Virus record (IMG/VR): IMGVR_UViG_3300029945_000007
From: an uncultured virus (IMG/VR IMGVR_UViG_3300029945_000007)
Lineage: Duplodnaviria > Heunggongvirae > Uroviricota > Caudoviricetes
Reading direction: 5' to 3' (one strand)
Length of the DNA: 64,000 bases
Part shown: positions 33,372 through 58,388 of the stretch, one piece after another
How positions within the stretch are numbered: the first letter of the stretch is position 1
Layout: every line of letters starts with the position of its first letter
Program-made: the position numbers and the translations under genes
Notes under the pieces: generated by a model
The model's database searches: none
What the model saw: only the letters and a program-made list of their open reading frames with translations
What the model was told of the DNA's origin: nothing

Positions 33372-33380
33372 GGAAAGTAT

Positions 33381-35477: not shown

Positions 35478-35656
35478 TCGCAATCCTCCAAAAGTTTCAA
35501 TGGTTCATCGCCGGCGGCGCGCTGTTCGCGCTGTGGGCGCTAATGATCGTCTCCGGCCACGCCGATGCCGATCTGATCTCTGCCATCAAGTACGCGCTGG
35601 TTTCGGTCGTCGCCGCGCACATGTCGCTCCAAGTTCCCCCACAAGGACCCGCGTAA
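35474..35656 (+). CDS. Small two-TM protein (holin candidate)
   Basis: Two hydrophobic segments; coupled at both ends. Confidence 0.55.
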   Translation: MIAILQKFQWFIAGGALFALWALMIVSGHADADLISAIKYALVSVVAAHMSLQVPPQGPA

Positions 35657-38035: not shown

Positions 38036-38284
38036 TTACGGGCCGTGCTCGTTGTGATGTTTGATGCGCGGCAGGCCTCTAGCATCCAGCAGAAGATTGA
38101 TGCCATCGATAAACAGCCGCTGTGCTGAAGTGTGCTCGGCGGCGGCAAGGGCCTTGATGCGCAGCTCGTCATCAAACTGAACCTTGACGCAATTCTTGAC
38201 GATGTCCGGTCTGCCTCTGGGGGGCGGCGGATCGACTTCCGGGCTGGGTTGCCTGAGAAATTCCGTTAATGTTGGCTTGGCCAT
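38036..38284 (-). CDS. Small ParA partner (ribbon-helix-helix-like)
   Basis: Overlaps parA; VKVQFDDELRIKAL...QRLFIDGINLLL. Confidence 0.65.
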   Translation of the reverse strand: MAKPTLTEFLRQPSPEVDPPPPRGRPDIVKNCVKVQFDDELRIKALAAAEHTSAQRLFIDGINLLLDARGLPRIKHHNEHGP

Positions 38285-38898
38285 AGCTGCTCCTTTATCC
38301 ATTCCCACAGCGCGCGGACCTCCGCCGGTGCGTTGCTCTTGTTTTTAAACTCGGCAACCGACAGGCCGCCACTGATTGCATGCTCATATGCCGCCAACTG
38401 GCTGATCCGAACCGGGATGACTTCGCCAAGTTTGGCCAGCAAGCCCGCGGCCTCGTCGTTCTGCGCCTTCTGGCGCCGGTCGCACCTGGTGAGCAGGAAG
38501 TGGGGCGTTTTGCCTGCCGCGCGCGCCATCTTTGCTGAAGCCTCAGCGCGTTCCATCTCGAAAGGTGACGGCTTGACCGGGATGATGATCAAGTCGGCCG
38601 CCCGGGCGATATCCATTGCCGCTGGCGATGCGTGCGGAGGGCTATCCAGAATGGCCAAGTCGAAACCATCTGCGCGCGCCTTCCGCAATACCTGGGCCAA
38701 GGCTGATGACGGCACGCCCAGAACTGTCGGTGTTTCTGACTGGCGTCGAGCGGCCCAGCTAACGGCTGATTGCTGCAGCTCGTCCATGTCGCAGACAAGC
38801 ACCTTCATTGAATCAAGCGCGGCCTGAACAGCTTCATGCACGGTCATCGTGCTTTTGCTGCCGCCACCTTTCTGCCCGAAGAACGCGATGGTTTTCAT
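38266..38898 (-). CDS. parA: ParA-family ATPase (short, type Ib-like)
   Basis: QKGGGSKST deviant Walker A, ILDSPP, ADLIIIP. Confidence 0.9.
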   Translation of the reverse strand: MKTIAFFGQKGGGSKSTMTVHEAVQAALDSMKVLVCDMDELQQSAVSWAARRQSETPTVLGVPSSALAQVLRKARADGFDLAILDSPPHASPAAMDIARAADLIIIPVKPSPFEMERAEASAKMARAAGKTPHFLLTRCDRRQKAQNDEAAGLLAKLGEVIPVRISQLAAYEHAISGGLSVAEFKNKSNAPAEVRALWEWIKEQLWPSQH

Positions 38899-39239
38899 GA
38901 TACAGCCTCGTGCGCATGTGCCGGGAACAGCCCGATCAGGCGAACGCATTCGGCGCGTAGCGCCTCGCGCTCCGTGACAGCGCCATCAAGGTCGTCGCGC
39001 AATTGCTCATGTTCGGCCTGTAATCCGGCGAGCATCGACGCATTGGCGTTCGCGCGAAGCTCTGCGGCGCGCAGACGGCCCGCCAGCGTCAGTACGACGT
39101 CAGGGTTGGCTGCGGCGATTAGGGCGCAATCGGCATTCCCGACCGCCATTTCGTTCGCCTGCTCGGCAGTAAACCATGCGATGTCTGGCCGATGCGCCGC
39201 GCGCGCCAGGCGTTCTAGTTCATCCAAATCGATTTCCAT
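38895..39239 (-). CDS. Ead/Ea22-like protein
   Basis: LDELERLARAA...LIAAANPDVVLTL; similar to 43890-44399. Confidence 0.7.
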   Translation of the reverse strand: MEIDLDELERLARAAHRPDIAWFTAEQANEMAVGNADCALIAAANPDVVLTLAGRLRAAELRANANASMLAGLQAEHEQLRDDLDGAVTEREALRAECVRLIGLFPAHAHEAVS

Positions 39240-39306: not shown

Positions 39307-40143
39307 CTAGGGCCGCAAGGCCTGAGTTCTGTACATCACAGGACTCAGGCCTTTTAATTTGAGCTTGATACGTTCGTGGTTGTAGTAGTGAATATACTTC
39401 CGAATGCCTGCTTGCAATGCACCGATACTCACGAAGCGATTCAGGTAGAAGAACTCCGATTTCAGCGTGCCAAAGAAACTCTCCATCGCAGCATTATCCA
39501 GGCAATTTCCCTTGCGCGACATACTCTGGGTGAGCCCATGAGATGCGAGTTGGTGTCGATAGGCGGACATCTTGTATTGCCATCCCTGATCTGAGTGCAG
39601 CAATGGAGCATCTGCGCTCGTCAGTTTAGCCAACGCCTTTCGGAGCATATTGCCAACCAAGGGAAAGTGCGGTCGCTCTTGCATCTCGTAGGCGATGATC
39701 TCCCCATTGTAGAGATCCATCACCGGCGAAAGGTAAAGCTTGTCGCCTCGCACGTTGAACTCGGTCACATCGGTCACCCACCGTTGGTTCGGCCGGTCTG
39801 CCTGGAACTGCCGATTCAGCACGTTCGGCACGTCAACGTGGCAGCCGCCCCGGTAGGACCGATATTTCTTGGGACGCACCAACGACTTGAGGCCAAGCAT
39901 CCGCATTAACCGCTGCACGGTTTTGTGGTTGATCACGGTTCCCGAATGCCGTAACTCAGCCGTAATGCGTCGATAGCCATAGCGGCCCTTATGGCGTGTA
40001 AAGATGGTTTGAATCCGGTCCTTCATGTCAGCATGTCTATCGCCGGTCTGCTGCACCTTGGCTTGGTAGTAGAACGTGCTACGCGACAGCTGAGCCACCC
40101 TCAGTAAAGCCGGTAGCGCATATTCTTGCCTTAGCTCGATCAC
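39307..40143 (-). CDS. IS3 transposase OrfB (DDE)
   Basis: WVTDVTE, HSDQG, DNAAMESFF. Confidence 0.95.
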   Translation of the reverse strand: MIELRQEYALPALLRVAQLSRSTFYYQAKVQQTGDRHADMKDRIQTIFTRHKGRYGYRRITAELRHSGTVINHKTVQRLMRMLGLKSLVRPKKYRSYRGGCHVDVPNVLNRQFQADRPNQRWVTDVTEFNVRGDKLYLSPVMDLYNGEIIAYEMQERPHFPLVGNMLRKALAKLTSADAPLLHSDQGWQYKMSAYRHQLASHGLTQSMSRKGNCLDNAAMESFFGTLKSEFFYLNRFVSIGALQAGIRKYIHYYNHERIKLKLKGLSPVMYRTQALRP

Positions 40144-40670
40144 GGCTTGCGCTTTTTGGGCGCAGCTTGCCGAGCGGTTCGAACCAAGGCATCCAATTTT
40201 TTTAGATACGCCACCTCCGCACGCAGAAGTTCGTTCTCTTTTTCGAGTTGTTCCAGCGTACGCGCTTCCTCAGGCATCGGTAGCTCGGGCTTGGGGGTGT
40301 CAGGGCGTGTCATTGTCGTGGGGCGACCTCGGGGCTTGGGTTTGAGAGCATCCAGACCACCCTCATGATACTGGCGTTCCCAGGTAGAGACGACCCCAGT
40401 GCCTCCCCTGATATCAAACAAGGCAATTGCCTGGCGGCAAGAAAGCTCTTCCTTCCACATGCGCTGCAACACCGAAAGCTTGAACTCAGCGCTATAGCGG
40501 CTGAATTTCTTGCAGAGCCCGGCATCGCCATGATGGTGATAGCTCGTTACCCACTTGCGGATCGTCGCTTGGTCCACTTCGTACTTGGCTCCAAGTGCTC
40601 TGTACCCCCTAGATCCAGCCAAATACTCTTGAACTATGGCTCGTTTGAAATCTTCATTATGTTTTGCCAT
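40140..40670 (-). CDS. IS3 transposase OrfA
   Basis: Two HTH blocks; A7 slippery run at 40197-40203 with an open -1 frame into orfB. Confidence 0.9.
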   Translation of the reverse strand: MAKHNEDFKRAIVQEYLAGSRGYRALGAKYEVDQATIRKWVTSYHHHGDAGLCKKFSRYSAEFKLSVLQRMWKEELSCRQAIALFDIRGGTGVVSTWERQYHEGGLDALKPKPRGRPTTMTRPDTPKPELPMPEEARTLEQLEKENELLRAEVAYLKKLDALVRTARQAAPKKRKP

Positions 40671-40871
40671 GAACTGCACCCCAAAGGTTGGATCGGTGTC
40701 CAACTTTTGGGGTGCAGTTCAGTTGTGGGGCTTAGTTTGGGTGTAAAAATACCCGCTCTAGGCGGGCGGCAGCGTAGTGCCAATGTAGGTGCAAATGGGT
40801 GCCAAAATGCGCGCCGCGTTACACGCCGCGTTACATTTTGCGGAGCAATTCGGAAATTGCGGAGCAAATGC

Positions 40872-40952: not shown

Positions 40953-41073
40953 GAGTCGTTGATTCTAGTAATGGCGCGGGAAATAGCTGTTTTTTTGCTC
41001 CGCAAATATCAAATATCACACCCTCTACAAGCCTTGATTTTGCTAGGTCGGCATTTGGTTTGCGGAGCAGAAA

Positions 41074-42123
41074 TTAGCGCGTTGGCCCTACTTTATCACC
41101 CTTCCGGTCTCGCACATAGTGCTCTGTCATCTTGACGGACGAATGACCTAATTGCTTCTGCGCCTGACGAATATCGCCAGCACTTTCCGCCTTGTCTGTA
41201 CCGGCCTTTGCGCGCAGGTCGCGGAATTGAAACGCCTTGATTGCGTCTGCCATTGTCGGGTTTGCTGTTGCAGCAGCTTCGCGCGCCTTCTCGAAACGCC
41301 CCCGTAGCGCGCCCTTGGTCAATCTGCCGCCGGTTTCGTTGACCACCAGGTACAGCGCTGGCGTTTTGCAGATAGCCTTGCGTGCCATCATCCTATCCAT
41401 CAATGTCTCCAGCTCGCCTATGATGGTGATCCGCAGCTTCTTTTCGGTCTTGGCCTGCTGAATGCACACCTCACCATTCTTGATGTCATCCTCCGTCATT
41501 GCCAACACGTCCCCAGGCCGCTGGCCTGTCAGATACGCAAGATCCATTGCGTCACGTAGCGCCTCGTCAGCAGCCTCATAGACGGCGGTAAAGATATTGT
41601 CCTCAATGTAGATGTTGCGACCCTTCTCCGTATTACCCTTAATGCCCGCACATGGATTGGCAAGGCTGGTATATCCCCATCCTCTTGCCTTGTTCCATAC
41701 GTGACTGAATAGAGCTTTTTCCCGGTTGGCCGCGACAGGGGAGGCGCTGCGGTGGTCTAAATACATGCGGATGTGCATCGGCTCGATCTCATCGAGTGGC
41801 GCCGGCGCCGGGTTGCAGAAAAAATCCTCAAGGCGCTTAAGCTCGCGTAGATTCTCACATTGAGTTTTCGGTGCTTTGAATGGGAGCACTTCTCTCATAT
41901 ACCGGTCTGCTGCATCCTTGAATGTTGGGCGCGCCGCAACAGGAACCTTGGCCACTTCAAGCTCAGACCATTTCTTTACCGCAAGCGGGTAATCGGAACC
42001 GAGGGGGATTTCCTTGCGAGGCTTCCCGCCTGCATCGTAGTAATAGAAAACCTTCCCACTCCGCTGCGGGCGAGCGCGCATACCCTTTGGGAGGTTGAAA
42101 TTTACGGTTGGCTTTCTGCCCAT
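41074..42123 (-). CDS. int: Tyrosine integrase
   Basis: TGQRPGD, FRDLRAK, LGHSSVKMTEHY. Confidence 0.95.
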   Translation of the reverse strand: MGRKPTVNFNLPKGMRARPQRSGKVFYYYDAGGKPRKEIPLGSDYPLAVKKWSELEVAKVPVAARPTFKDAADRYMREVLPFKAPKTQCENLRELKRLEDFFCNPAPAPLDEIEPMHIRMYLDHRSASPVAANREKALFSHVWNKARGWGYTSLANPCAGIKGNTEKGRNIYIEDNIFTAVYEAADEALRDAMDLAYLTGQRPGDVLAMTEDDIKNGEVCIQQAKTEKKLRITIIGELETLMDRMMARKAICKTPALYLVVNETGGRLTKGALRGRFEKAREAAATANPTMADAIKAFQFRDLRAKAGTDKAESAGDIRQAQKQLGHSSVKMTEHYVRDRKGDKVGPTR

Positions 42124-42129
42124 GATGAA

Positions 42130-42369
42130 TTACCTGGCTGCGGGTTGCCACTTTGCGGCGGTAGTGATTTCGCGTTTTGATTGTCCGTCGATGGCCGAGC
42201 GAGCCACGATAGGGTGCCCCGCGGCATTAACCCGAAATGGTACTGCCATGGACTTTAGCGCCTCAATCTGGAGGGCCTTAAGCTTACGCCCCGTTAGTAT
42301 TGCGATCTCTTCTTTTGTCAAAAACAGCGGGGCTATGGCGGCTACTTGATCAGCCATCGGATTCTCCAA
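42130..42369 (-). CDS. Excisionase-like protein (DUF4224-like)
   Basis: FLTKEEIAILTGRK...GHPIVAR directly upstream of int. Confidence 0.75.
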   Translation of the reverse strand: MENPMADQVAAIAPLFLTKEEIAILTGRKLKALQIEALKSMAVPFRVNAAGHPIVARSAIDGQSKREITTAAKWQPAAR

Positions 42370-42427
42370 AAAATTTGAGCCGCATCAGCGGCCTATTATT
42401 GATCTTGCGGCAGCGCCGCCAATCGAC

Positions 42428-42940
42428 TCATGCGCACTTGCGCGCCTGCGCCATCGATGCCATGGTCATCGCCTCTGCGTCGATCATCGCCGTGAGCGCC
42501 ATCCCCTTGGGCATTACCGCTAAGAGTTGCCGACACAGATCAACCGACTGACGGATGGCTTCAAGCTCGGCGGCGAGCGCGGTGAAAGTCCCGCGTTCGC
42601 GCCAGCGCTCCCCGATTACCGCCAGCGCTTCGGCTGCCGCCTCGGTGCGCTGTTTGACCATCAGCGCAAGATCGCCGGTTTCGGCGCTGCCGCGGTGAAT
42701 TGCCAATTGCCGGCCGAGTTGCCACGTCATACAGTTCGACTCGTTTAGCACGATAAATCGCGTCGAGTCGAGCATCCCGGCGCGCAGATTGTCTAGCGCC
42801 ATATATGCCGGTAGCAGGATGTCGGTCTGTTCGTTGGTGGCGACATCGGCAGTGCTCGCCTTGAAGATCGTTTGATGGATGATGCTGACCCCGGCACTGC
42901 CTGTGGCGTAGTGCTTGCGCTTGCATTGCTTGCGGCTCAT
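42428..42940 (-). CDS. Hypothetical phage protein
   Basis: Coupled ORF in the early-left operon. Confidence 0.65.
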   Translation of the reverse strand: MSRKQCKRKHYATGSAGVSIIHQTIFKASTADVATNEQTDILLPAYMALDNLRAGMLDSTRFIVLNESNCMTWQLGRQLAIHRGSAETGDLALMVKQRTEAAAEALAVIGERWRERGTFTALAAELEAIRQSVDLCRQLLAVMPKGMALTAMIDAEAMTMASMAQARKCA

Positions 42941-43131
42941 GGCTTGTGGATGCTCATGAAAAAAGAATAATCATCACCTTCCGGGACGGGAACCTCATAA
43001 CCAGGAAAGCAATCAGTCAACAAATGGCCGCATGGTGCAATATCTCCTATCTTGCAACCGCACTCATCGCCACACAGCCCATCAAAGCCGTTCGACGTCA
43101 AATGCTGCTCAACGATTTGGATGATGTTCAT
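42937..43131 (-). CDS. Small Cys-rich phage protein
   Basis: GFDGLCGDECGC...PCG; coupled. Confidence 0.65.
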   Translation of the reverse strand: MNIIQIVEQHLTSNGFDGLCGDECGCKIGDIAPCGHLLTDCFPGYEVPVPEGDDYSFFMSIHKP

Positions 43132-43517
43132 GGCTTGAGCTCCGGCGCAGCATTCAGGCGCTCAATCACCGGAAGAATGACGTTCTGAATCTGTGCGCGA
43201 AGCTGGCCAGCCGCGTGGTATTTGATTGCCACGTCGCGCAATTGATTGACCAGTTCAGCGGTCTGATGATCTTTCCAGACAGGCGCGTCCACTGCTTCCG
43301 GCATAGCCAGTGCGGCGCGGGCGCGACTAGAGGCGCAATCTACGCAAGCACATCGTTCAATCCTCATTTTTTGGCACGACGGAGAAAATTCAACCGCACA
43401 CATTAAATCGCGCGCCGCCGCCTCTATCGCCTGACTGCGTGTTTTTGGGGGTGTTGGCGCGCCAGAGTCCATGCCGTCCCAACCTTCGTGCAAGATGTGA
43501 CTTCTCGGCTTGATCAT
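43128..43517 (-). CDS. Hypothetical phage protein
   Basis: Coupled ORF. Confidence 0.55.
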   Translation of the reverse strand: MIKPRSHILHEGWDGMDSGAPTPPKTRSQAIEAAARDLMCAVEFSPSCQKMRIERCACVDCASSRARAALAMPEAVDAPVWKDHQTAELVNQLRDVAIKYHAAGQLRAQIQNVILPVIERLNAAPELKP

Positions 43518-43608
43518 AACTCCCGCTCCTTTTCGATTTGTTCAACGATACGCCCGCAGTCTGACTCATGCGCCCATGCCGCCTCCGCTACCTGCTTGAT
43601 ATAAGTGC

Positions 43609-43893
43609 TCATGACGGCTCCCGGTTTTTTGTGATGACTTCATCTGCTCTATCCATGGAGTTGCGCACGGCCCCAATCCATGTCCGAGCCAAGCTCAGTT
43701 CAAGCGCGTCCTGCTGCAGCTTGGCAAGCTCGCCTGTTGTGACAGTGACCAGCCCAGATCCGTCAATGTCGTCATGTAGGATATGGACGCACAGATTGAT
43801 GCACTCGTCACACAGGTTGATGCCGGGCGTGACCATGATCATTTTGTAAACATCGGCGTGAGGCTTGCCGCATGCGGTGCAGATCAGGATCAT
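43609..43893 (-). CDS. ClpX C4-type zinc-finger protein
   Basis: CTACGK...NLCDECINLC. Confidence 0.75.
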   Translation of the reverse strand: MILICTACGKPHADVYKMIMVTPGINLCDECINLCVHILHDDIDGSGLVTVTTGELAKLQQDALELSLARTWIGAVRNSMDRADEVITKNREPS

Positions 43894-44399
43894 GTTGACT
43901 GATCCTTGTGTTTGGCGATGGCATCTTCCGCGAATTTGTGAATTACCGACGCATGGAATGGGTGGTATTTCCACTCCTGGCCGGTCCAAATGCGCATCAT
44001 CTCGGATCGATGTTTAATGTCAGATAGCGCCGCCAGCAGGCCATCGCGCTGCCCCTCAAGATTCTCGATGGCGCCAATGATTGGGTCGCACCCGCCGTCA
44101 TTCGGATCTAGCCCAAGATGTTCGTTGATGAGACCAAGATCAGAGCAAGCGGCTTCGAACATGCGCTTGTAGCTCTCGCCTTCGCGCGCACGCCGGATCA
44201 GTTCCAGCACGGAGGCTGGGTTGAATGCGGCGATGAAAGCGGCGTTACGCCTTACAATGGTTGTGGCAGTAACCTCTACAGTTCCCGCGCCACTGTGATC
44301 ATGCCCGATCTCATAGCATGCATAAGCACATTCAATTTTTCGCCACGGCCCCGGCGTTGCCGCCTTCGCCAGCCGCTCCAGCTCGTCTAGGTTTGTCAT
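43890..44399 (-). CDS. Ead/Ea22-like protein
   Basis: LERLAKAATPGPW...NAAFIAAFNPASVLELI. Confidence 0.8.
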   Translation of the reverse strand: MTNLDELERLAKAATPGPWRKIECAYACYEIGHDHSGAGTVEVTATTIVRRNAAFIAAFNPASVLELIRRAREGESYKRMFEAACSDLGLINEHLGLDPNDGGCDPIIGAIENLEGQRDGLLAALSDIKHRSEMMRIWTGQEWKYHPFHASVIHKFAEDAIAKHKDQST

Positions 44400-44800
44400 T
44401 GCGATTTTCTCCATGCGAACGGCACTGGGTCTGGCATAACCCACAAATGCCGCATGTTTGCCACGTTCACCACGTCGCTTTGGCGCGGGAAAACCTCAAC
44501 CGCGTCGAAATCCGCATAGCCAACGTCGGCTTTGATTTCCTGCAGCTCTTCCCACGCGATACCGTCTTGCCAGCGGTTGCCATCAAGTTTTGTGCGGCAT
44601 ACGGACAGCCGGACGGTGCCGGCCGCCTCATTGAACGCCTGCACCAGATAATTTCGACTGCGCCACACCTCGAACGGGGCGTTAATCCCTTTGTACTGGG
44701 GCCATTGATCGCGCGGAACTGGCGTAAGATCGGCAGGGAAGGCGGCAACATACGCGTGCTGTGTTTTTTGCGCTCGTCGGCGCTCATCTCGGTTCATCAT
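44396..44800 (-). CDS. Conserved hypothetical phage protein
   Basis: WEELQEIK...AVEVFP...VVNVANMRHLW. Confidence 0.7.
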   Translation of the reverse strand: MMNRDERRRAQKTQHAYVAAFPADLTPVPRDQWPQYKGINAPFEVWRSRNYLVQAFNEAAGTVRLSVCRTKLDGNRWQDGIAWEELQEIKADVGYADFDAVEVFPRQSDVVNVANMRHLWVMPDPVPFAWRKSQ

Positions 44801-44829
44801 CACTCCCATGAAAAGCCGCCTGGGCGGCG

Positions 44830-44898
44830 TCAAAGTTTGTCAACCGCATCGATGCGCGCGCCGATCCAGCGCATGCTCGGCACAGCCATCGAGTTGCC
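44830..44898 (-). pseudogene. 3' remnant of a second C5 DNA methyltransferase
   Basis: Reads GNSMAVPSMRWIGARIDAVDKL*, a motif X-type terminus. Confidence 0.6.
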
Positions 44899-44944
44899 CG
44901 GGCCTGAGCGAGATAGACCCGGGCTTGGTGGGTGAGGGTGGTTG

Positions 44945-46867
44945 TCATGCGGCCTCCAGTTCTCGCATTTCTTTCCATGTCCATGTCGCCAGATCCATGC
45001 AATTAGCTCGCATGAGTGCGATAGCTGGAGGTGGGCTGACGGAATTTCCTACCATCCTGACCTGCGCTGATTTTGAGAACACCCGCCCATCGTGTCCGCG
45101 ATCAATGATGTAGTCAGGGGCAAAGCCTTGGCACCCGTACAGTTCTGGCGGGGCCAGCATGCGCAGGCCGATATCAACAATTACCCACGGCTCGCCCTTG
45201 AGCCAGACAGTAACCAGCGCCAGGCGGTCCCGGGTCGTTGCTGTAGGCATCGGGTCAGTCATACCGCTGACGTTGTCGGTGCCGTAGTAGCTGATCAGGA
45301 ATGCCGCACAGCGGAGGGCACCGGCTTCATGTTCACGGCTCAGCTGATATTCAACCAATGCAGTCTTGCCGCCACCGCCTGCCATGATTGCGCCGACTGG
45401 ATCATCTACCGGCTGGCCGACCGAGTTTCCGAACTGGCGCTGCAGGTGCGCAGCGATCAAGCCGTGATGCTCGCCGCCGGCACTGATCGTCATGAGCGGA
45501 TCTGCTACATCACGGGCATCGCAGTTGCCGCGTAGATGGGCCAGCGTGGCCGCGATCAACTGCTGCTGGCTGCCGGTGTTGGTGATGGTGCTGGACGGTT
45601 CGCGCAGGTCGTGGCCTGGCGTGGTGTTGAACCCGCCATTGGCTTGCATCAGGTAGGCCGTGGCGACATTCCGATGGTTTTCTTTCAAGATCGTGCCGAG
45701 TGGCGCGCCAACGCTGGCAGGCTTGCCGCTATAACTCGGTCCGCCAGCACCAACAAGGATTGCAGATGCCAGCGCTTGGCCGCCGCTTCCCGATGCGGTT
45801 ACGGTGCCGAGTGGGTCCGTTGCTGATTTAGCGCCGCTGCCCCAGCGCTTTACGCCGCCAGGCTTACCGTCGCCATGGCCAGCTTGAACCATCGTTGGCG
45901 CGGCCACCGCAAAACTGCCACCCTTCGGCCATGCCGTGATTGTGCGCAGCGGCTCTGCTGCTGACTGAACGGTTTCTCCTGACCAGTTAGCAATTGGCAC
46001 GATGAACGGCTCGGCGGAGTCGAGAACGAACTTTTTCATCCCCTTGGCGATCCGGCGCATGGTGGCGTCTGCCAGCGATTTCTTGCGAGAGAAAATAGAC
46101 GGGCACGGAATAGACCAGTCAATGTGGTCAGCCGCCGGTATCCACGCCTTCTGTCCGCGCTTCGGGTTTTTGAAGTACGTCGGCTCCGGCCAGACAATCG
46201 GCGTGCCGTCACGTCGAGCGAACAGGAATAACCGTTCTCGCGTCGTTGCCGCGCCATAGTCCGCCGCGCAGAGAATGCGCCATTCGACCTGATACCCCAT
46301 TTGTTCGAACGTGCGAATGAACCGCCGCCAGGTGCGGCCAACATGCTTTGGATCAGGGACCAGGTATTGCTCTTGCACTGGTACGCGCTCGCCGGGAGCG
46401 GCGACTGTCTTGTCCAGCTTGATGACTCTGCCGGTGGCCTTGTCGCGCTTGGCGATCAGTGGCCCCCATTGCTGCATTTGCTTGACGTTTTCCATGCTGA
46501 TACTGCGCGGCAAGACTTGACCTGCCCATCGAGGAAGAACCCACCCCAACCCCCGTATTTTCTTGCTGCGCGGCTGACCGCCAGCGGCTTGGCTGTGGTG
46601 TGTGCAATCCGGACTGCCGTGCAGATGGCCGACAGAGCGGCCTTTGGTCGCTTCTCTCGGGTCGACTTCGAATACGTCTGCGCAGTAGTGCTCAGTTTGC
46701 GGGTGATTTGCCATGTGCATACTGATGGCGTCTGCGTCGTGGTTGATGGCAATATCAACGTGACGCCCGAGTGCTCGCTCGATTGCCCCGGACATGCCCC
46801 CGCCGCCAGCAAACAAATCAACAATGATTTCGTTGTCGACGCAGAGCGAGAATTGATCTCTTATCAT
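44945..46867 (-). CDS. DNA cytosine-5 methyltransferase
   Basis: DLFAGGGG, SPDCTHHS, MENV, RERLF, MVGNSV. Confidence 0.93.
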   Translation of the reverse strand: MIRDQFSLCVDNEIIVDLFAGGGGMSGAIERALGRHVDIAINHDADAISMHMANHPQTEHYCADVFEVDPREATKGRSVGHLHGSPDCTHHSQAAGGQPRSKKIRGLGWVLPRWAGQVLPRSISMENVKQMQQWGPLIAKRDKATGRVIKLDKTVAAPGERVPVQEQYLVPDPKHVGRTWRRFIRTFEQMGYQVEWRILCAADYGAATTRERLFLFARRDGTPIVWPEPTYFKNPKRGQKAWIPAADHIDWSIPCPSIFSRKKSLADATMRRIAKGMKKFVLDSAEPFIVPIANWSGETVQSAAEPLRTITAWPKGGSFAVAAPTMVQAGHGDGKPGGVKRWGSGAKSATDPLGTVTASGSGGQALASAILVGAGGPSYSGKPASVGAPLGTILKENHRNVATAYLMQANGGFNTTPGHDLREPSSTITNTGSQQQLIAATLAHLRGNCDARDVADPLMTISAGGEHHGLIAAHLQRQFGNSVGQPVDDPVGAIMAGGGGKTALVEYQLSREHEAGALRCAAFLISYYGTDNVSGMTDPMPTATTRDRLALVTVWLKGEPWVIVDIGLRMLAPPELYGCQGFAPDYIIDRGHDGRVFSKSAQVRMVGNSVSPPPAIALMRANCMDLATWTWKEMRELEAA

Positions 46868-46904
46868 CGGATCTCCAGGCATTAAAATGCCCGCATGTAG
46901 CGGG

Positions 46905-47990
46905 CTATGGTTTTCGGTAGGTCTTTCTGATGTCCATGCTTATCGACTGACCGCGCCGTCGCAGTGCGTTCGCCAGTCGGCAGCGGTCGTGATGGCTGCT
47001 GGTGGCTTGGCCAAGCAATCCGAAATAACTATTGGCTGTTTCGAATAGATCGCCCTCATCGATGTCGACCACTCGTCGTATCGCCTGGCGGTACGTCCGG
47101 CGCCGTGTGGTACGTGACCAAGGCTTGATGACCTGGCCGACCATATCGATGCCGCGCGCCACCGGCTGAATGAAAGTTTTCCTCGGGTTGAGCTGCAGCC
47201 CGAGCTCGGCCAGTTTCGTTTCGATCTGCGCCCGCGCCGCCGTGAGCCAGCTCGCGTCCTCATGCAGCAGCACGAAATCATCCACATATCGGCAATAATA
47301 CCGAGCGCCGACGCGGTGCTTGATGTGCTGGTCGAGCGAGTCCAGTAGCACGTTGGCGAAGAACTGGCTGCTGAGGTTGCCGATTGGCAGACCGTGATGC
47401 TCATCAGCGTTGACCAGCCGCTTGTGTGCCGGTACGCGATCAATCAGCGCCGGATCGCCGCGCATCTCGAAATCAGTACGCGGGTCGTGAAACAGAATCA
47501 GGTCGGCCAGGGCCATCCACCACGGTTCGTGGATACGTTTCGCCAATTGCGCGCGCACCTGGTGCTTGTCGATCGATACAAAGAAATTCGACAAATCCAT
47601 CTTGATATACCAGGCTGGACGGCTCCAGTTCTGCGTTATTGACCTGACGTGATGCTCAAGCCTTTCTGCTGCATATAGCGTCCCGCGCCCGGGGATACAG
47701 GCGCAGGAATCCGCAATGAATCCGCGGTGAAAGCGATCGGAAACACGGTTGTAAAGTAGGTGGTGCACGATTCGATCCCGGAATTCTGCCGCCCAAACCT
47801 CTCTGGGCTTTGGCCGGGTAATGACGAAACAGATCGAGCGGCCCGGATGATAGCGGCCCTCGATCAGTTCGTCGTAAAGCTCCAGCAGGTTCTGTTCGAG
47901 ATCGATCTCGAAGGCCAGTGCGGATTTGCTGTTGCGCTTCGCGCGACGGCAATCGAAATAATCCTCGACCAGATCCGAAAAAGCTGGCAT
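46905..47990 (-). CDS. DGR reverse transcriptase
   Basis: FRDRIVHH, MDLSNFF, GLPIGNLSSQFFAN, RYVDD; no maturase/endonuclease extension; adjacent TR and Avd. Confidence 0.95.
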   Translation of the reverse strand: MPAFSDLVEDYFDCRRAKRNSKSALAFEIDLEQNLLELYDELIEGRYHPGRSICFVITRPKPREVWAAEFRDRIVHHLLYNRVSDRFHRGFIADSCACIPGRGTLYAAERLEHHVRSITQNWSRPAWYIKMDLSNFFVSIDKHQVRAQLAKRIHEPWWMALADLILFHDPRTDFEMRGDPALIDRVPAHKRLVNADEHHGLPIGNLSSQFFANVLLDSLDQHIKHRVGARYYCRYVDDFVLLHEDASWLTAARAQIETKLAELGLQLNPRKTFIQPVARGIDMVGQVIKPWSRTTRRRTYRQAIRRVVDIDEGDLFETANSYFGLLGQATSSHHDRCRLANALRRRGQSISMDIRKTYRKP

Positions 47991-47995
47991 TGATG

Positions 47996-48099
47996 AATCT
48001 GCGGACGGCCAGCGCGCGCACCTCGTTGTCCTTGTTGATGTTGTTAGTGTTGCCATCATCGAAGTTCTGTTCGTATGCGTTGTTAGGGCTGTACTGCGT
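47996..48099 (-). ncRNA. DGR template repeat (TR), 104 nt
   Basis: Eight AAC codons; differs from VR1 only, and from VR2 almost only, at TR adenines. Confidence 0.95.
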
Positions 48100-48265
48100 C
48101 AATTCGTGCTTGCTACGTCGCCCTGTCGATGCCGAAGCGAACGGCGGGGAAACTGCGCCAGGCCAGCCCGGCTTTACCGGCGGTACCCCTAGAGCGCATA
48201 TCGGTGACCTTGTGGGTCAGCGGCACGACCAGATTCAAATCGCACTGGCATGACGGCCTTGACGG

Positions 48266-48622
48266 TCATGCAGCTGGCGATGCGGACTCATACTTCCTTT
48301 TCCAGCCGTTGGCCTGCCGCCCAATACCGCCGAGAAGCGCGACGCCCTGGGCGTACTGCCGCTCGCTGATAATTTTTAGATCACAGCAAAGCCTGAACAT
48401 GAAGTTCAGCGATTCAACGCGCTCAACCAGATCGCTCAGATAGGGCACTTTGTTGCGCGCGACATTGGCGCGAAAGACCAGGGTCATTAACTCTGAGCAT
48501 TCGTCATCAAGCTTGTCGCCCCGGCGTTTGTGCTTGCGAGGGATATTACTGACGAGATTAGCAACGAGCATCGTCAGCGCGTAAACGTCCTTGTAAATCG
48601 GTAGGCTGGAATGGAGTGCCAT
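48266..48622 (-). CDS. avd: DGR accessory variability determinant (Avd, four-helix bundle)
   Basis: 118 aa, basic; LPIYK...IGRQANGWKR; lies between target and TR. Confidence 0.88.
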   Translation of the reverse strand: MALHSSLPIYKDVYALTMLVANLVSNIPRKHKRRGDKLDDECSELMTLVFRANVARNKVPYLSDLVERVESLNFMFRLCCDLKIISERQYAQGVALLGGIGRQANGWKRKYESASPAA

Positions 48623-48633
48623 GAGAAAAACCC

Positions 48634-48651
48634 GCGCGGGCAAGCCCGCGC
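48634..48651. promoter_or_regulatory. GC hairpin downstream of VR1 (DGR target-recognition element)
   Basis: GCGCGGGC-aa-GCCCGCGC, preceded by ATTTAA on the coding strand. Confidence 0.7.
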
Positions 48652-48667
48652 TTAAATGGTTGAATGA

Positions 48668-49279
48668 CTAAATAAACAATCTGCGGACGGCCAGCGCGCG
48701 CACCTCGCAGTCCTTGTTGATGCTGTAAGTGCTGCCATCATCGAAGTACTGTACGTATGCGTAGCTAGGGCCGTACTGCGTACTGGTGTGGTGCCAGCCC
48801 TTCGGGAGTCGAGCGGCCAGGTTGATTTCGACCAGCGCCAGCTCCCGCCGTGCCGGGAGGTAGAAGTCGCTATACCCGTCGATATTGAGGCCGTAGGCCC
48901 ATTCTGCTGCCGGATGATCGTATTCCGACTCAACCAGCGCTTTCGTGTTGGCCATACCGTCCCAGTGACTTTTTGCTCCGGGTTCGTCTTTGCCGTAACC
49001 GCCCCACACAATTTCTGCGATCTGGCCATCGGGATGCTCTGCCGCGATCACGTAATACGGCCTGGAGCCGTCGCCGGGAACGATCAGCCCGGCATTTCTG
49101 CCACCTTGGCCCGGCCAAAGTTCTCCAGGAAACGGAGTGCGGCTCAGTGGCATCGCAAACTCGGCCGCTTGACCGATGTGTGCCTCGATTATCTCCGCGG
49201 AACGAGCCGGGAAGTTGATGACCAAGTCGCCTTTGATAAGCAATTGCTTGATGGACAGCTCAATTTTCGATCCCATCAT
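48668..49279 (-). CDS. DGR target 1, DUF1566/C-type-lectin-fold protein
   Basis: DGMANT, DFYLPARREL; C-terminal VR. Confidence 0.9.
   Translation of the reverse strand: MMGSKIELSIKQLLIKGDLVINFPARSAEIIEAHIGQAAEFAMPLSRTPFPGELWPGQGGRNAGLIVPGDGSRPYYVIAAEHPDGQIAEIVWGGYGKDEPGAKSHWDGMANTKALVESEYDHPAAEWAYGLNIDGYSDFYLPARRELALVEINLAARLPKGWHHTSTQYGPSYAYVQYFDDGSTYSINKDCEVRALAVRRLFI
48678..48781 (-). repeat. Variable repeat VR1
   Basis: 10 mismatches to TR in 104 nt, all at TR adenines. Confidence 0.95.
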
Positions 49280-49297
49280 TTACCCTTAAAAAAGCGA

Positions 49298-49317
49298 AAC
49301 CCGGCTGGCGCCGGGTT
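49298..49317. promoter_or_regulatory. GC hairpin downstream of VR2
   Basis: AACCCGGC-tggc-GCCGGGTT. Confidence 0.7.
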
Positions 49318-49332
49318 AAATTGAAAAATGGC

Positions 49333-49944
49333 TTAATGGACGATGTGAATCGTGCGGACGGCCAGCGCGCGCACCTCGCCGTCCTTGATGATGCCGCAAG
49401 TGCTGCCATCACCGACGCTCTGACCGTATGCGTCGTTAGGGCTGTACTGCGTACTGGACATGTAGCAGCCGGGCTCAATGGCATGTTCGCCACCCTCTTG
49501 GAACGCGGCGATAGTGGTCTGCGCGGGGCTGTCCGGCGTGTAGGGGTATTCGCCCGTCGTCGGGTTGTCGCCGTCGCGGTAGGTGCAATAGTTCTCGTCG
49601 GCGGTCGGCTTGAAGTCGCGGTAGATCATTTCGAGCTGATCGCGTGACGGGACGTGCCAGTCGTCGAACCCGCCGAGGCGCAGTGCGCGGGCTTCCTTGG
49701 CTGCGTCGCTGCCGGCTTCGGCCATTGCATCGGTGTTCGTAGCGCCGTTAATGCAGCTGCGTGCCCCGACGACGTCCTGTCCATACTCGCCCCACGTGCC
49801 GCGCAGTCGGCCATCCTTACCGGCAACGATGACGGCGTACTCTTCGCCATCCACTTTGTAGCGGCGGCCAAGAAAGCCGCCCTGGAATGCTTCACCGATG
49901 GATTTCGGCAGCTCGCTAACTGCTACGTCTTGAATCTTGATCAT
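49333..49944 (-). CDS. DGR target 2, DUF1566/C-type-lectin-fold protein
   Basis: NGATNT, DWHVPSRDQL; C-terminal VR. Confidence 0.9.
   Translation of the reverse strand: MIKIQDVAVSELPKSIGEAFQGGFLGRRYKVDGEEYAVIVAGKDGRLRGTWGEYGQDVVGARSCINGATNTDAMAEAGSDAAKEARALRLGGFDDWHVPSRDQLEMIYRDFKPTADENYCTYRDGDNPTTGEYPYTPDSPAQTTIAAFQEGGEHAIEPGCYMSSTQYSPNDAYGQSVGDGSTCGIIKDGEVRALAVRTIHIVH
49353..49452 (-). repeat. Variable repeat VR2
   Basis: 14 mismatches to TR in 100 nt, 13 at TR adenines. Confidence 0.93.
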
Positions 49945-50410: not shown

Positions 50411-51313
50411 TCAACCAGTTGCCTCCAGACCACCCAGGGCCTCGATCAGGGCTTCAACCAGCTCTCCAAGCTCCTCGCTCATCAGGGTGAAGGTGGCCTC
50501 GAACAGGCTGGCGCTGTCGTCACCAGCTTGACTTGCCTCGTCCTGCAAGACGTCGAGAAACTGGATGCGCTTGAGCTGCAGCGTGTCAGTCAGCACAAAG
50601 CGCACGCGCTCTTTCCAGATCAGACCTAGGCGTGTCACCTGCTTGCCGGTGGCGATATGTTGGCGGATCTCGTCGGCGGTCAGGTCGGCGCGCTTGGCGT
50701 TGATCACCATGCCGTTTTCGCCGGGGTCGCGCAGCTCAACATCTGAATCAAGTTCGAAGCCTTCCGGCGCTTCGCCCGCGGCCAGCCAGTCGGTCATCGC
50801 GGTGTGCGGCGCCAGTTTTGTGCGCGGCAGGGCCGCCGGGAAGGGCGGAAGCGCCTCGCGCAACTTGCTGACCAGTGCTTCGGCCTTGCTTGACGTCGCC
50901 GTGTCGACCATCAGCCAACCGCGGCGGTTGTCGATGTAGCCAACTTTGCGACTGTCCCGGGTGAATGCCTTGGGCAGCAAAGCGTCGGCGATCTGTTCTT
51001 TAAGGGCCTGTCTTGCCTTGCGCCCGAGCTTGCACCCTTCGCGCCGCTCGATCTCAGCGGCCACCTCATCGCGCTTCTTGTTGATCACTGCGGGCGGCAA
51101 CACTTTGTCCTCGCGCTTGAGCGATACCAATAGGCAATCGCGCGCGGCGAACACCGGGCCGTCGACGTGACTGGCCGGCGTCTGCCAGCCTTCACTGAAC
51201 CAGCCGAGGCCCATGCATGGTGTGAACGGCTGCTTTTCAAGCCGCTCGGCCAGTTCGTTGCGCCCGATCGTGTCGGGCAGCTTGTAAAACGATAGTTGCT
51301 TAAACCACATCAC
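50411..51313 (-). CDS. rdgC: Recombination-associated protein RdgC
   Basis: MWFKQLSFY...EDKVLP...LLPKAF. Confidence 0.92.
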   Translation of the reverse strand: MMWFKQLSFYKLPDTIGRNELAERLEKQPFTPCMGLGWFSEGWQTPASHVDGPVFAARDCLLVSLKREDKVLPPAVINKKRDEVAAEIERREGCKLGRKARQALKEQIADALLPKAFTRDSRKVGYIDNRRGWLMVDTATSSKAEALVSKLREALPPFPAALPRTKLAPHTAMTDWLAAGEAPEGFELDSDVELRDPGENGMVINAKRADLTADEIRQHIATGKQVTRLGLIWKERVRFVLTDTLQLKRIQFLDVLQDEASQAGDDSASLFEATFTLMSEELGELVEALIEALGGLEATG

Positions 51314-52660: not shown

Positions 52661-53338
52661 TTATTTGGTGAGCGCGGCGCGGAGCCGTGGGTCAATGTCG
52701 GGTTGGTTGAGCAGCCAGCGCCTGTAATCGGACGGCACTTGCGCAAGCGGCACCCCTTGATGCTTACCGAATGGCATCACAGTCGGAATCAGCGCGCGTT
52801 CGGACAGTTCGTGCAGCTCCTGCCAGCTCGTCGCCTTGAGGTCGTTCATCAGCGCCAGCAGGATTTCGCGGCAGATCCAGATATCAGCCAGGGCGCTGTG
52901 CGCATTGCGCAGCTGTTCGCGCGCCGCCTTTCCCTTGAGGTGATACAGCAGGGCGCTTTGCGTGTGACTGTCGAGTGCCGGCCATACCATGCGCGCCAGA
53001 GCGAGTGTGTCGATCAACTTGACTGGCGGTTTGCCAATGACGATCCAGTCGAAACCATCGACGTTGTGGCCGATCAGATAGTCGGTCGCCGGCAGCGCGA
53101 AATTCGTGTGCGCCGGGCAATCAACTAGGTCATCAGGGTGGATGTGATGTGTGGCCAGCGCGCCCAGGTTGATCGGCTTGGTTGGCTTATAGCGCTGCTC
53201 GAACTGATCGATAACGCCACAGACCGGCGGCGCGTCCAATTCCAACCACGCGGACTCGATCACATCTGGTAGGGCACCGGTTTTCTTGTCGATGTGGCCG
53301 GTGGTTTCAACGTCAAAGATACGTGCGATTTGTGCCAT
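52661..53338 (-). CDS. DEDDh 3'-5' exonuclease (ExoX-like)
   Basis: FDVETTG, GHN, AHSALAD, MPFGKHQG. Confidence 0.9.
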   Translation of the reverse strand: MAQIARIFDVETTGHIDKKTGALPDVIESAWLELDAPPVCGVIDQFEQRYKPTKPINLGALATHHIHPDDLVDCPAHTNFALPATDYLIGHNVDGFDWIVIGKPPVKLIDTLALARMVWPALDSHTQSALLYHLKGKAAREQLRNAHSALADIWICREILLALMNDLKATSWQELHELSERALIPTVMPFGKHQGVPLAQVPSDYRRWLLNQPDIDPRLRAALTK

Positions 53339-55562: not shown

Positions 55563-55581
55563 AACCCGGCGATGCCGGGTT
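55563..55581. promoter_or_regulatory. GC hairpin downstream of VR3, stem identical to the VR2 hairpin
   Basis: AACCCGGC-gat-GCCGGGTT. Confidence 0.7.
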
Positions 55582-55584: not shown

Positions 55585-56058
55585 TTACTGAATAGATGAA
55601 TAGGCGACTCTGCGGACGGCTCGAGCACGACTGCTGGTGACCTTGAAGACGCCGTGCTGGGTGCCGCCGCGGAAGTACTGCGCCCAGGCGACGCCGCTCG
55701 AGCACTGCGCGCAAGACCAGTGCCAGTCGCCGGAGAACAGGCGCTTGAGCTGGGCGAACAGGAATGACTGCTCCTGACGCGTCGGCAGCTCCCCACCGAT
55801 CGATGCTGCCCAGTCCAGTGCCTGCTGCCATCCGCCTTTAAACTCGCCGGGTAGGAGAATCAAGTGGTGCGACGGCTCGCCAGTCTCGGCATCAAACACC
55901 AGGCCCGCATAATCCTCGCCCTCGTGCAGCAGCACGCCGATTACCGTCCGAACCTCGGTGACCGCCGGCTCGGCGAACAAGCTGGCGATTAGTTTTTCAA
56001 TCCGGTGTAGCGGGGCGGACAACTTCACGTCGCCACATTCCAGGGTTGCTATTTGCAT
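55585..56058 (-). CDS. Third DUF1566/C-type-lectin-fold protein with a VR-like C-terminus (55609-55710)
   Basis: WQQALDWA...ELPTRQEQ...WHWS...RARAVRR; AGGAG RBS. Confidence 0.85.
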   Translation of the reverse strand: MQIATLECGDVKLSAPLHRIEKLIASLFAEPAVTEVRTVIGVLLHEGEDYAGLVFDAETGEPSHHLILLPGEFKGGWQQALDWAASIGGELPTRQEQSFLFAQLKRLFSGDWHWSCAQCSSGVAWAQYFRGGTQHGVFKVTSSRARAVRRVAYSSIQ

Positions 56059-56637
56059 TGTCACGCTCCTAAAAAATAAGCCCGCACGAGGCGGGCAAAG
56101 AAAACACAAGGAGAACACGTTTGTTGGTGCTGGTTTCTTTCCCCCCAGCAAAGTCAGACCAGTAGCTTGTCATTGGCGCCCTGCGCATGCCCTGTTGCCG
56201 TTCATGGACGCTTGGCCTTTGTGTTGTGGCCCGCATGTCGTCGCGACTCATGCCGTGTTGTCAGTCTTAGTTGGTGCGTTTACCAACACGGCTGGCGGAT
56301 GGTGCCGCATCAGTGGTTGCCTGGCACAGACTTCCGATGCTCAGTCGCCATGCGTGTTGGCGCCGGTCTTTCCCGGCCGTCAGGCGCTGTGCGGTCGCCA
56401 CCTCACACTCTATGATTTGGCTCAGTCGCAAAGCCCGCACTCCGGAACTGCCGAAGCGAATCAGCGCATTCGTGGACATTTAATGGGTCCGTCTTGAATG
56501 CGGAAGTCATCCAGACCCGGTAAACGCACTCGTCGGAATGTGCTTACCGGGTGGCCGCTTACGGCGACCGGTCGCGCCACAAATCAGCTGTTGTGCTCAG
56601 GGCGCCGCTCCCCGGTAAAATCACCAAAACCACCTCG

Positions 56638-57471: not shown

Positions 57472-57786
57472 TCAAGTGCTTTTAGAGAATTCGACCGCAA
57501 CCTTAGCGAGCAACTCAAGTTTGTCGTTAGATAGGGTAGGGAGGGCGGCGCGGATTAGATCTAGAGATTCGGCGCGTACGCTATCTGCATCACCATTAAT
57601 AAGGTGATCGCTTGACACGCCGAACATTTTTGCAAGTGCTACAACATTTTGCGGTTTTGGCATTGATGTACCACTAAGCCATCCAAAAACGGCCTGAACG
57701 GATACCCCACAGGCTCTTGCAATTTCTTTCGCTATAATGCGATCGCGCTGTTTTAAATGGCGCAGCCGTGCCTGAAAAGTATCCAT
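57472..57786 (-). CDS. XRE-family HTH regulator (HTH-C)
   Basis: KEIARACGVSVQAVFGWLSG. Confidence 0.85.
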   Translation of the reverse strand: MDTFQARLRHLKQRDRIIAKEIARACGVSVQAVFGWLSGTSMPKPQNVVALAKMFGVSSDHLINGDADSVRAESLDLIRAALPTLSNDKLELLAKVAVEFSKST

Positions 57787-57882
57787 TAGGGGATGGTAGA
57801 TACCACCTAGGCGAACAGCAAGAAACTCTAGTGTTTGGTATCAAGTTTACTTGATACGCAAGCCATGCGTAATGACTTACAA

Positions 57883-57898
57883 CTGTAAGATAGGACAG
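57883..57898. promoter_or_regulatory. LexA (SOS) box-like site
   Basis: CTGT-aagatagg-ACAG. Confidence 0.6.
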
Positions 57899-57905
57899 TT
57901 GACTA

Positions 57906-58244
57906 TTATTTTGTTTTGGCGGCGAGAATGGCGCGCCAGAGCTTTATAACCTCTTCGTCGCCACGCGCTACCAACTTGTCGGCAAGGTCTTCAATTGACT
58001 CGGCAGAAATGTAGGCGCCAGCCGGATCAACCAGGTTATCGCGCGGGCCTTTGCCCGTCTCTAGGTACACTGGATTCATCTTGAACGCTCTCGCAAGTTG
58101 CAAGAGTTTTGTTGTACCACGATTGGGATCGTTCTCAAGTTCAGAGATGAGGGTTTTGCTGACATTAGCACGCCTGGCCAACTCCTCTAGAGTCCAACCA
58201 CGACGCATGCGTTCTTCTTTAATGCGGATACCGAGCGAATTCAT
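57906..58244 (-). CDS. XRE-family HTH regulator (HTH-B)
   Basis: RGWTLEELARRANVSKTLISELE. Confidence 0.88.
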   Translation of the reverse strand: MNSLGIRIKEERMRRGWTLEELARRANVSKTLISELENDPNRGTTKLLQLARAFKMNPVYLETGKGPRDNLVDPAGAYISAESIEDLADKLVARGDEEVIKLWRAILAAKTK

Positions 58245-58388
58245 CCGCACATAATGTGGTACGCCTCGTTCTGAAAGCGGGATTTATTGGCATGAAATCA
58301 GGAATTATTGTTCTGGATACAGATTGATTGTCACCGACATTCGATGCAATAAAGCCCGCGATTGCGGGCTAAAGGTATTCTGTGCAGG

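Follow-up and report, generated by a model that had tools for sequence, protein, structure and literature searches.

Organization of the retroelement

The window analyzed here, a 64,000-nucleotide (nt) stretch of DNA from the uncultured virus record IMGVR_UViG_3300029945_000007 in IMG/VR, carries on its minus strand a complete diversity-generating retroelement (DGR) at 46905-49944 (all coordinates are positions in the window). The cassette comprises two tandem target genes, target 2 (49333-49944) and target 1 (48668-49279), followed by the accessory gene avd (48266-48643), a template repeat (TR; 47996-48099), and the gene for a reverse transcriptase (RT; 46905-47990), and all of its open reading frames (ORFs) are intact. 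An initial annotation of the window had given this minus-strand order and the position of the TR, and our analysis confirms both, adding a structured RNA, RT-15 (48097-48282), between avd and the TR.

A repeat finder returned three in-register repeat copies of about 104 to 118 nt (48000-48117, 48682-48799, and 49353-49470), and a minus-strand alignment of the copies shows a common core that ends in an invariant GC-rich block. The TR lies in the intergenic region between avd and the RT gene, is 104 nt long with 35 adenines and eight AAC codons, and reads, on the minus strand and in the frame of the variable repeats (VRs), TQYSPNNAYEQNFDDGNTNNINKDNEVRALAVRR. VR1 (48678-48781), at the end of target 1, differs from the TR at 10 positions, all of them TR adenines (five A>G and five A>T changes; hypergeometric p 7e-6). 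VR2 (49349-49452) forms the last ~34 codons of target 2 and, over the core of the repeat (48026-48081 in the TR), has 14 mismatches, 13 of them at adenines (p 1.3e-6), the sole other change being a T>G at TR position 48063. The homology of VR2 to the TR stops 3 to 4 nt sooner at the 3' end, and the full 104 nt contain 17 differences, 14 at A. These in-register counts agree with those of the initial annotation (10 of 10 for VR1 and 13 of 14 for VR2), as does its remark that the two VRs carry largely different changes: seven changed positions are common to both, and at only four of these is the base identical. Over the codons seen to vary, the TR has a coding capacity of about 10^16 protein variants.

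The GC-rich segment at the 3' end of the repeats is 25 nt long; the window contains it three times and no more, and the expectation from 100 shuffles is 0. It is identical in the TR and both VRs, such that no base difference of the IMH/IMH* (initiation of mutagenic homing) kind lies inside it; the sequences diverge just 3' of the segment. There, both VRs, but not the TR, are followed by the sequence ATTTAA, a GC stem-loop, and a T run, again as first described. The element after VR1 (48634-48651, minus strand) has seven GC pairs and a 4-nt loop, and the one after VR2 is at 49298-49317, also on the minus strand.

Variation at TR adenines in related sequences

A close relative of the window, the metagenome contig L093, has a 100% identical TR and differs from the window at only 9 of 1,777 positions outside the VRs (99.5% background identity), but both of its VRs have been rediversified. 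Compared with the window, VR1 of L093 has 18 changed positions, every one of them a TR adenine, and VR2 has 22, with 20 falling on TR adenines. In line with these findings, a protein record (P0002) that equals target 2 outside the VR has changes confined to codons with an A in the TR and so represents a third VR2 allele, and two further records (P0003 and P0004) represent yet more VR alleles. Two IMG/VR contigs (L004 and L005) and two metagenome contigs (L092 and L097) match the window exactly or almost exactly, also in the VRs. The initial annotation had proposed adenine-specific mutagenic retrohoming, as in Bordetella phage BPP-1, and had reasoned that a lack of A-specific VR variation in related genomes would argue against current activity; the alleles of L093 and P0002 answer that point in favor of activity. 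The proposed mechanism is fully supported, now also by the natural replacement of alleles in L093.

Contigs assembled from RNA libraries (two metatranscriptome runs of one study) carry L093-type single-nucleotide polymorphisms. In one of them a 30-letter loose end at 48767 can be read as the L093 VR1 allele, with seven differences from the TR, all at adenines. These contigs leave 46905-47312 and the core of VR2 uncovered, which is not evidence of absence, and because they come from RNA libraries they hint at transcription, but no more. A separate observation concerns contig L094, in which (266-1985) the VR of target 2 runs into the TR and RT of an 86%-identical relative, with target 1 and avd skipped. 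This junction probably arose when the assembly collapsed at the VR/TR repeat and was left out of the evidence, but it may be a real deletion by VR-TR recombination.

Taken together, natural alleles of this kind make it almost certain that the DGR is real and active in nature. An alternative would be that the window holds no functioning DGR, with the repeats representing a decayed relic or a chance similarity, or with the RT belonging to a retron or a defense system. A third target paralogue in the window has indeed decayed (see below). Against a relic or a chance repeat, however, stand the intact ORFs of the cassette and the adenine bias of both VRs, and the combination in L093 of an identical TR with two VRs rediversified at TR-A sites already contradicts this explanation. 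The remaining form of the alternative, a retron- or defense-type RT, bears on the proteins encoded by the cassette.

RT, Avd, and the RT-15 RNA

The RT gene encodes 361 amino acids (aa) counted from the Met codon at 47990, which lies 6 nt past the TR and is most likely the start, rather than the first ATG of the ORF, which falls within the TR. The protein matches RVT_1 (1e-17) and phrog_1423 (5e-108) and contains an intact catalytic YVDD at residue 235 and IGNLSSQ at residue 203; the motif typical of DGR RTs is [I/V/L]GxxxSQ. GenBank labels the Cruim01 and QDWS homologues "retron-type RNA-directed DNA polymerase," and the window RT has weak matches to retron and defense-associated RT (DRT) models. 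All of these, however, are far below the curated NCBIfam cutoffs (group II, 83.6 versus 300; retron St85, 55.7 versus 235; Drt3a, 54.8 versus 200), and the Drt2, Drt4, and Drt5 models score lower than Drt3a. Identification of the enzyme as a retron, DRT, abortive infection (Abi), or group II RT was rejected on these scores.

The avd gene, on the minus strand like the rest of the cassette, encodes an accessory four-helix-bundle protein that matches Pfam bAvd (PF22296) at 44.5 bits, above the cutoff of 40, and phrog_3206 (2.8e-21), a family labeled "Avd protein of DGR"; its score with the NCBIfam model DivGenRetAVD, 59.7 bits, is under the cutoff of 80. The presence of both Avd and RT-15 is a further point against a retron or defense RT, and overall the absence of a functioning DGR is highly improbable.

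RT-15 (Rfam RF03018) was detected on the minus strand at 161.8 bits (gathering threshold 82) over its full length, 1-192, and its 3' end adjoins the 5' end of the TR, at the first TR codon. The same layout, with RT-15 directly 5' of the TR, was present in all four RT-bearing relatives scanned (L001, 7120-7312; L002, 7000-7176; L003, 6971-7153; L009, 9321-9509), and RT-15 was not found in the RT-less relative L006. In BPP-1 the spacer RNA is located 3' of the TR. Since the RT gene of the window begins a few nucleotides past the TR, RT-15 and the BPP-1 spacer flank their TRs on different sides. RT-15, an orphan family in Rfam, may conceivably represent a cis-acting DGR RNA of this clade, acting from a position 5' of the TR. 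We found no paper that pairs RT-15 with a DGR in a literature search of CC-licensed PMC papers and bioRxiv. A link between RT-15 and the DGR template RNA would provide a second architecture in which to study the priming of cDNA synthesis.

The target proteins as single lectin domains

Both targets are proteins of 203 aa encoded on the minus strand, and they can be aligned with each other in the family alignments. Target 2 is a stand-alone C-type-lectin fold of the DUF1566 type (phrog_4245, 4e-26); target 1 has the same DUF1566-type lectin fold behind an N-terminal extension of ~45 aa, its match to phrog_4245 (1.5e-24) covering residues 46-202. With the Pfam family PF07603 (Lcl_C, formerly DUF1566), target 1 scored 20.3 bits (7e-4) and target 2 26.1 bits (1e-5), neither reaching the threshold of 34.9, and 25 of 29 target homologues have precomputed PF07603 matches. 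The targets are therefore divergent relatives of PF07603 and not members by its curated threshold. NCBIfam returned no match for the targets, and PADLOC returned none for the targets, Avd, or the adjacent uncharacterized genes.

An AlphaFold2 (AF2) model of target 2, built from a 30-sequence alignment, has a predicted local distance difference test (pLDDT) score of 86 and a predicted template modeling (pTM) score of 0.85. Its best structural match by VIA-align is the C-terminal domain (CTD) of Lcl from Legionella (8q4e; Z 10.8), aligned over residues 7-199 with a root mean square deviation of 3.0 over 123 residues and a Foldseek probability of 0.99. Further matches are a Bacteroides fimbrial protein (4eps; Z 10.4), Bd2740 (Z 7.6), many C-type-lectin domains at a Z of ~5, and the solved DGR variable proteins TvpA (Z 4.9), Mtd (4.7), and TaqVP (4.2). 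A Foldseek search of the model against the PDB gave nothing at an E of <=0.001, the best hit again being 8q4e (1.2e-2), and the profile of the target family matches the Lcl CTD at an E of 2e-4. The molecule name of 8q4e is "HbP1," and a literature search under that name returned the human gene only.

Because residues 7-199 of target 2 align with the Lcl CTD, the protein is one lectin-fold domain lacking a separate attachment domain, and in the model the VR occupies its last strands. Neither the model nor the sequences contain an N-terminal docking domain, and no hydrophobic N terminus, signal peptide, lipobox, or transmembrane segment was seen in any of the three paralogues. Of the description of the targets as nonstructural C-type-lectin proteins of the DUF1566 kind in the initial annotation, the fold is thus upheld by structure prediction (pLDDT 86; Z 10.8 with the Lcl CTD), and the nonstructural part is favored by four indirect lines taken up below.

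The third paralogue lies upstream of the cassette on the same strand (55585-56058; 157 aa from an internal Met codon, within an ORF spanning 55585-56151) and matches phrog_4245 weakly (9e-6). When its C terminus is compared with the TR, 22 of 39 substitutions are at A, and there are indels in addition, but its hairpin (55563-55581, minus strand) is the identical element of ATTTAA, CCCGGC...GCCGGG, and T run. We take it for a former target, now decayed, that lies close to where the early-left operon starts.

The early-left operon of a temperate phage

PHROG annotation divides the window into two adjacent phage regions. Both have repressors and a replication module of their own. The DGR belongs to the second. 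Its leftward operon contains, besides genes of unknown function, those for a C5 DNA methyltransferase (44945-46882, minus strand; 1.5e-23), immediately 3' of the RT gene, then RT, avd, target 1, target 2, an RdgC-like recombination protein (50411-51313, minus strand; PF04381, 2.4e-105), immediately upstream of target 2, an exonuclease, a single-stranded DNA-binding protein (SSB), and Erf. It ends in an integrase gene (41074-42123, minus strand; phrog_1, 1.2e-50), and beyond it are repressors (57472-58250) and a rightward replication module (62304-63880). From this integrase-to-repressor layout it follows that the DGR lies in the leftward early operon of a temperate lambdoid prophage, the PL-type operon of recombination, anti-restriction, and excision functions. 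The profile search and a sequence scan also confirm the earlier description of the targets as proteins of about 200 aa with no signal peptide, encoded between rdgC and a methyltransferase gene.

The first region (1-37000, plus strand) contains a repressor, O and DnaB replication genes, a terminase, sheath and baseplate genes, and a fiber gene; between the two regions are a ParA-like gene (38266-38949) and an insertion sequence (IS) transposase pair (39307-40703). The structural genes of the window are of the myovirus type and belong to this first region; the tail genes among them (20606-36503), which lie past the integrase and the IS, appear to be those of another, adjacent prophage. For the claim that the DGR is far from any tail gene, this is a small correction.

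Some further features of the window were noted. The C5 methyltransferase is unusually long (645 aa), with a Pfam match broken into two parts, which implies that its catalytic halves are separated by a large insert, and similar long methyltransferases lie 3' of the RT in three relatives (L025, L033, and L086). An RNase T/DnaQ-like exonuclease (52661-53338, minus strand) carries a C-terminal QSregVF_b domain (E 8.6e-6), a putative quorum-sensing-regulated virulence factor domain. The first phage region includes a tRNA-Thr (TGT) gene (9296-9370, plus strand). A virus record, G001, matches 20606-29205 at 100% and has no match to 41000-46900 or the DGR; it is a fragment, and the comparison shows little.

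A clade of related cassettes

A scan with the target alignment against one genome per species gave 80 loci, mostly from Pseudomonas and Betaproteobacteria. A same-strand Avd is present in 65 of the 80 and an RT in 60, and the order target-Avd-RT is seen in 59. Of the 60 with an RT, 15 have a methyltransferase 3' of the RT, 13 a same-strand integrase 3', and 10 opposite-strand replication genes upstream. No locus among the 80 gave a match to a panel of structural proteins from the neighboring prophage, a result of little weight. Five loci were fully annotated with PHROGs (L011, L025, L038, L033, and L086), and all five have a CI-like repressor, an exonuclease or RecT, one to three phrog_4245 genes, Avd, and RT, followed 3' of the RT by a methyltransferase in three and by xis/int in four (the L033 integrase by tblastn only). 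The early-left position is thus conserved in every fully annotated relative. The cassette is found at the same place in the isolated phages Cruim01, Haboob, LPPA56, SC_8_H2H8_2017, and phPA-G and in Burkholderia phage Magia.

For a census of VRs, the avd-RT spacer was compared with its own locus in the 59 species-level loci that have Avd as well as RT. Of these, 58 contain VRs (two in 37 loci, three in 18, and one in 3), and the 1,746 substitutions counted in the clade divide into 1,675 at TR adenines and 71 at other bases, in addition to 26 gap columns. In the 18 loci with three VRs, the third is still intact and often lies 4 to 8 kb upstream, the site of the decayed copy in the window. In a related phage (L006, 7153-9266; also L007, L008, and L096), avd and the TR are gone and the RT is reduced to a remnant of its 3' end. 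Both target homologues are kept with their VRs frozen, VR1 showing 14 differences from the window TR, 12 of them at A. Loose ends and contig depths suggest that this phage accompanies the DGR-bearing one in the same runs and reaches a higher depth there.

Judged by the loci compared here, this clade of cassettes, with its early-left operon site kept across prophages, its two or three diversified lectin domains devoid of export signals, and its apparent use of RT-15 5' of the TR, is not described in the literature that we searched. Papers on early-operon or nonstructural phage DGR targets were likewise not found among CC-licensed PMC papers and bioRxiv.

Where the targets may act

By analogy with the BPP-1 paradigm, the RT-Avd complex would reverse transcribe TR RNA, placing random bases opposite adenine, and the resulting cDNA would replace VR1 or VR2, guided by the common GC-rich 3' segment and the downstream hairpin, giving up to ~10^16 protein variants per target. 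Expressed from the early-left operon, the targets would be made early and would either stay in the cytoplasm or be freed only at lysis, serving as hypervariable binders and not as receptor-binding proteins of the virion. Given a gene neighborhood of methyltransferase, Lar-like, and recombination functions, the most likely use of the targets would be in binding variable proteins of the host or of rival elements, in counter-defense, host takeover, or exclusion. We give this reading as a whole, an active DGR that diversifies early nonvirion binders, a probability of about 0.6, and it is the best supported of those considered. Its central part, that the targets are not virion components, is probable; a role specifically in counter-defense or host takeover, which is argued from the gene neighborhood, is a tentative suggestion. 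Equally tentative is the broader proposal that temperate phages of Pseudomonas and Burkholderiales might use the DGR to maintain a cytoplasmic, antibody-like library of lectin-fold binders that neutralize host defense or competitor proteins.

Four lines favor a location outside the virion: the conserved operon position, the bare, export-signal-free domain, the occurrence in two morphotypes, and an undiversified homologue in jumbo phage PA5oct. On the third line, the cassette is common to Cruim01, a siphovirus (PMC11256456, Table 2), and Magia, a myophage (PMC7883833). On the fourth, PA5oct EST35_0104 (L090, 1465-1956) is 43% identical to target 2 residues 11-108 (98 residues), with a weak C-terminal Lcl_C match, and lies in the direct terminal repeat (DTR; genes gp34-105). 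The PA5oct paper reports that the terminal-repeat genes gp34-gp105 are highly transcribed at 5 min and uncharacterized except for three structural proteins (PMC7318152). In the electrospray ionization mass spectrometry (ESI-MS) table of virion proteins (Table S5), EST35_0104 does not appear among the entries up to EST35_0210, the locus-ordered list stepping from EST35_0051 to EST35_0123.

The principal alternative is classical tropism switching, in which the targets would be receptor-binding or adhesin accessories on the tail fibers, or released adhesins, varying host range as in BPP-1, with the early-operon site reflecting chance insertion of the cassette. Several observations speak for this explanation and weigh against a nonvirion role. 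According to a survey of DGRs (Roux 2021, PMC8144416), every phage target that has been characterized by experiment is a receptor-binding protein, and most annotations of viral targets are those of tail proteins. DUF1566 domains form the C termini of long fiber-like phage proteins with collagen repeats or peptidase-S74 domains (BFVD), the best solved structural matches of target 2 (Lcl, the Bacteroides fimbrial protein, and Bd2740) are extracellular adhesins, and the authors of the Magia announcement suggested a role in host range (PMC7883833). Other points weigh against the reading that we prefer: the structural genes of the DGR prophage itself fall outside the window, and so a partner tail protein is possible; the PA5oct homologue is undiversified and belongs to a phage of a very different kind, and its lack in one proteome is negative evidence; and the RNA-library contigs come from one study and possibly contain DNA. 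Against tropism switching, the whole target consists of a single lectin domain and has nothing for docking or trimerization, the position between CI and int is kept in all five annotated loci with no adjacent structural gene, one type of cassette serves siphovirus and myovirus alike, and the PA5oct homologue is missing from the virion table entries up to EST35_0210. On balance, tropism switching seems unlikely for these targets.

A further alternative is a benefit to the lysogen. Here the targets would be expressed from the prophage in the manner of morons and, being hypervariable, would sense or block incoming phages or other elements (superinfection exclusion), or would contribute to lysogenic conversion in another way. 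Cytoplasmic sensors diversified by DGRs are known in bacteria. A GC hairpin and T run resembling a terminator lie past each target, as is often the case with morons, and these hairpins could fit separate, moron-like expression in the lysogen equally well, which counts against the reading that we prefer; they are also expected as the target-recognition element of a DGR. The homologue in phage D3, orf68, comes next after cI on the same strand, a rex-like position. The RT-less relative (L006-L008) keeps its targets, so that ongoing diversification is dispensable for at least some function, a further difficulty for the preferred reading; this relative is also more abundant in the same samples. On the other hand, the targets have no effector or signaling domain and no PADLOC match, a simple scan revealed no promoter-like site directly upstream of them, and their genes are co-oriented with, and lie inside, the repressed early operon. 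We consider a lysogen benefit somewhat less likely still than tropism switching.

If the targets neutralize variable host defense or competitor proteins, the DGR would serve adaptive viral counter-immunity and not tropism switching. Intracellular action would mean that DGRs let viruses evolve intracellular binders at a diversity of ~10^16, with a bearing on the arms race between phages and host defenses and on the engineering of DGR-based binder libraries. Since Cruim01, Haboob, LPPA56, and Magia have been isolated and are culturable, the role of the targets is directly testable.

Comparison with known systems

Understanding of phage DGRs rests almost entirely on BPP-1 and the switching of its receptor specificity at the tail-fiber tip. 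Compared with it, the DGR of the window is an ordinary member of its kind, complete and recently active, and provides a clean, active example of a large clade that diversifies bare lectin-fold proteins from an early recombination and excision operon. Like the BPP-1 element (mtd-avd-TR-brt), it has the order target-avd-TR-RT, adenine-specific mismatches, AAC codons in the TR, a GC-rich 3' segment common to VR and TR, a GC hairpin past the VR, and a C-terminal variable domain of the C-type-lectin kind. Unlike BPP-1, which has one target, the window has two in tandem and a decayed third; its cassette lies in the early-left operon and not beside tail genes; and it carries RT-15 5' of the TR, with the RT 6 nt past the TR, whereas the spacer RNA of BPP-1 is 3'. 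Mtd is a trimeric fiber-tip protein of 381 aa, whereas the targets are single domains, whose length of 203 aa leaves no room for the N-terminal domains of Mtd. Only the lectin core aligns between the target 2 model (residues 18-202) and Mtd (1yu0, residues 166-380 of the chain; Z 4.7).

The type of target is itself already catalogued. About half of the category d DGR targets (DUF1566, CLec2) are stated to be short, DUF1566-only proteins (Wu et al. 2018, PMC5758913). LdtA of Legionella pneumophila shares the DUF1566-type variable domain but is described there as a surface-anchored lipoprotein, whereas the window targets are early-operon phage genes whose products have no lipobox or signal peptide. 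The closest solved structure, the CTD of Legionella Lcl (8q4e, PF07603), is the head of a secreted collagen-like adhesin, is not diversified by a DGR, and has a sequence identity of ~20%.

Among isolated phages, Magia, Cruim01, Haboob, LPPA56, SC_8_H2H8_2017, and phPA-G share the RT/Avd lineage of the window at 66 to 68% nt identity and have the RT-15 element. Magia and the Pseudomonas phages also resemble it in having small lectin-fold targets in an integrase-proximal early operon (a layout seen in Cruim01, Haboob, and Magia), but the targets of Magia are shorter, at 120 and 154 aa. The Magia announcement, the only publication in which we found the element of these isolated phages mentioned, notes a potential DGR, with IMH-like regions inside two short genes (47 and 57), and contains no analysis of target function, timing, or localization (PMC7883833); in the Cruim01 paper, the terms DGR, retroelement, and reverse transcriptase have 0 occurrences (PMC11256456).

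Finally, PA5oct EST35_0104 and D3 orf68 (L091, 5001-5561) are, like the targets, stand-alone proteins encoded in the early regions of Pseudomonas phages, but they have no RT, Avd, or TR nearby, are not diversified, and lack an insert of ~50 residues present in target 2. Further undiversified homologues occur in PMG1, FBPa42, and about ten PA5oct-like jumbo phages. The presence of such homologues in well-studied phages offers a tractable route to the basic function of the family.

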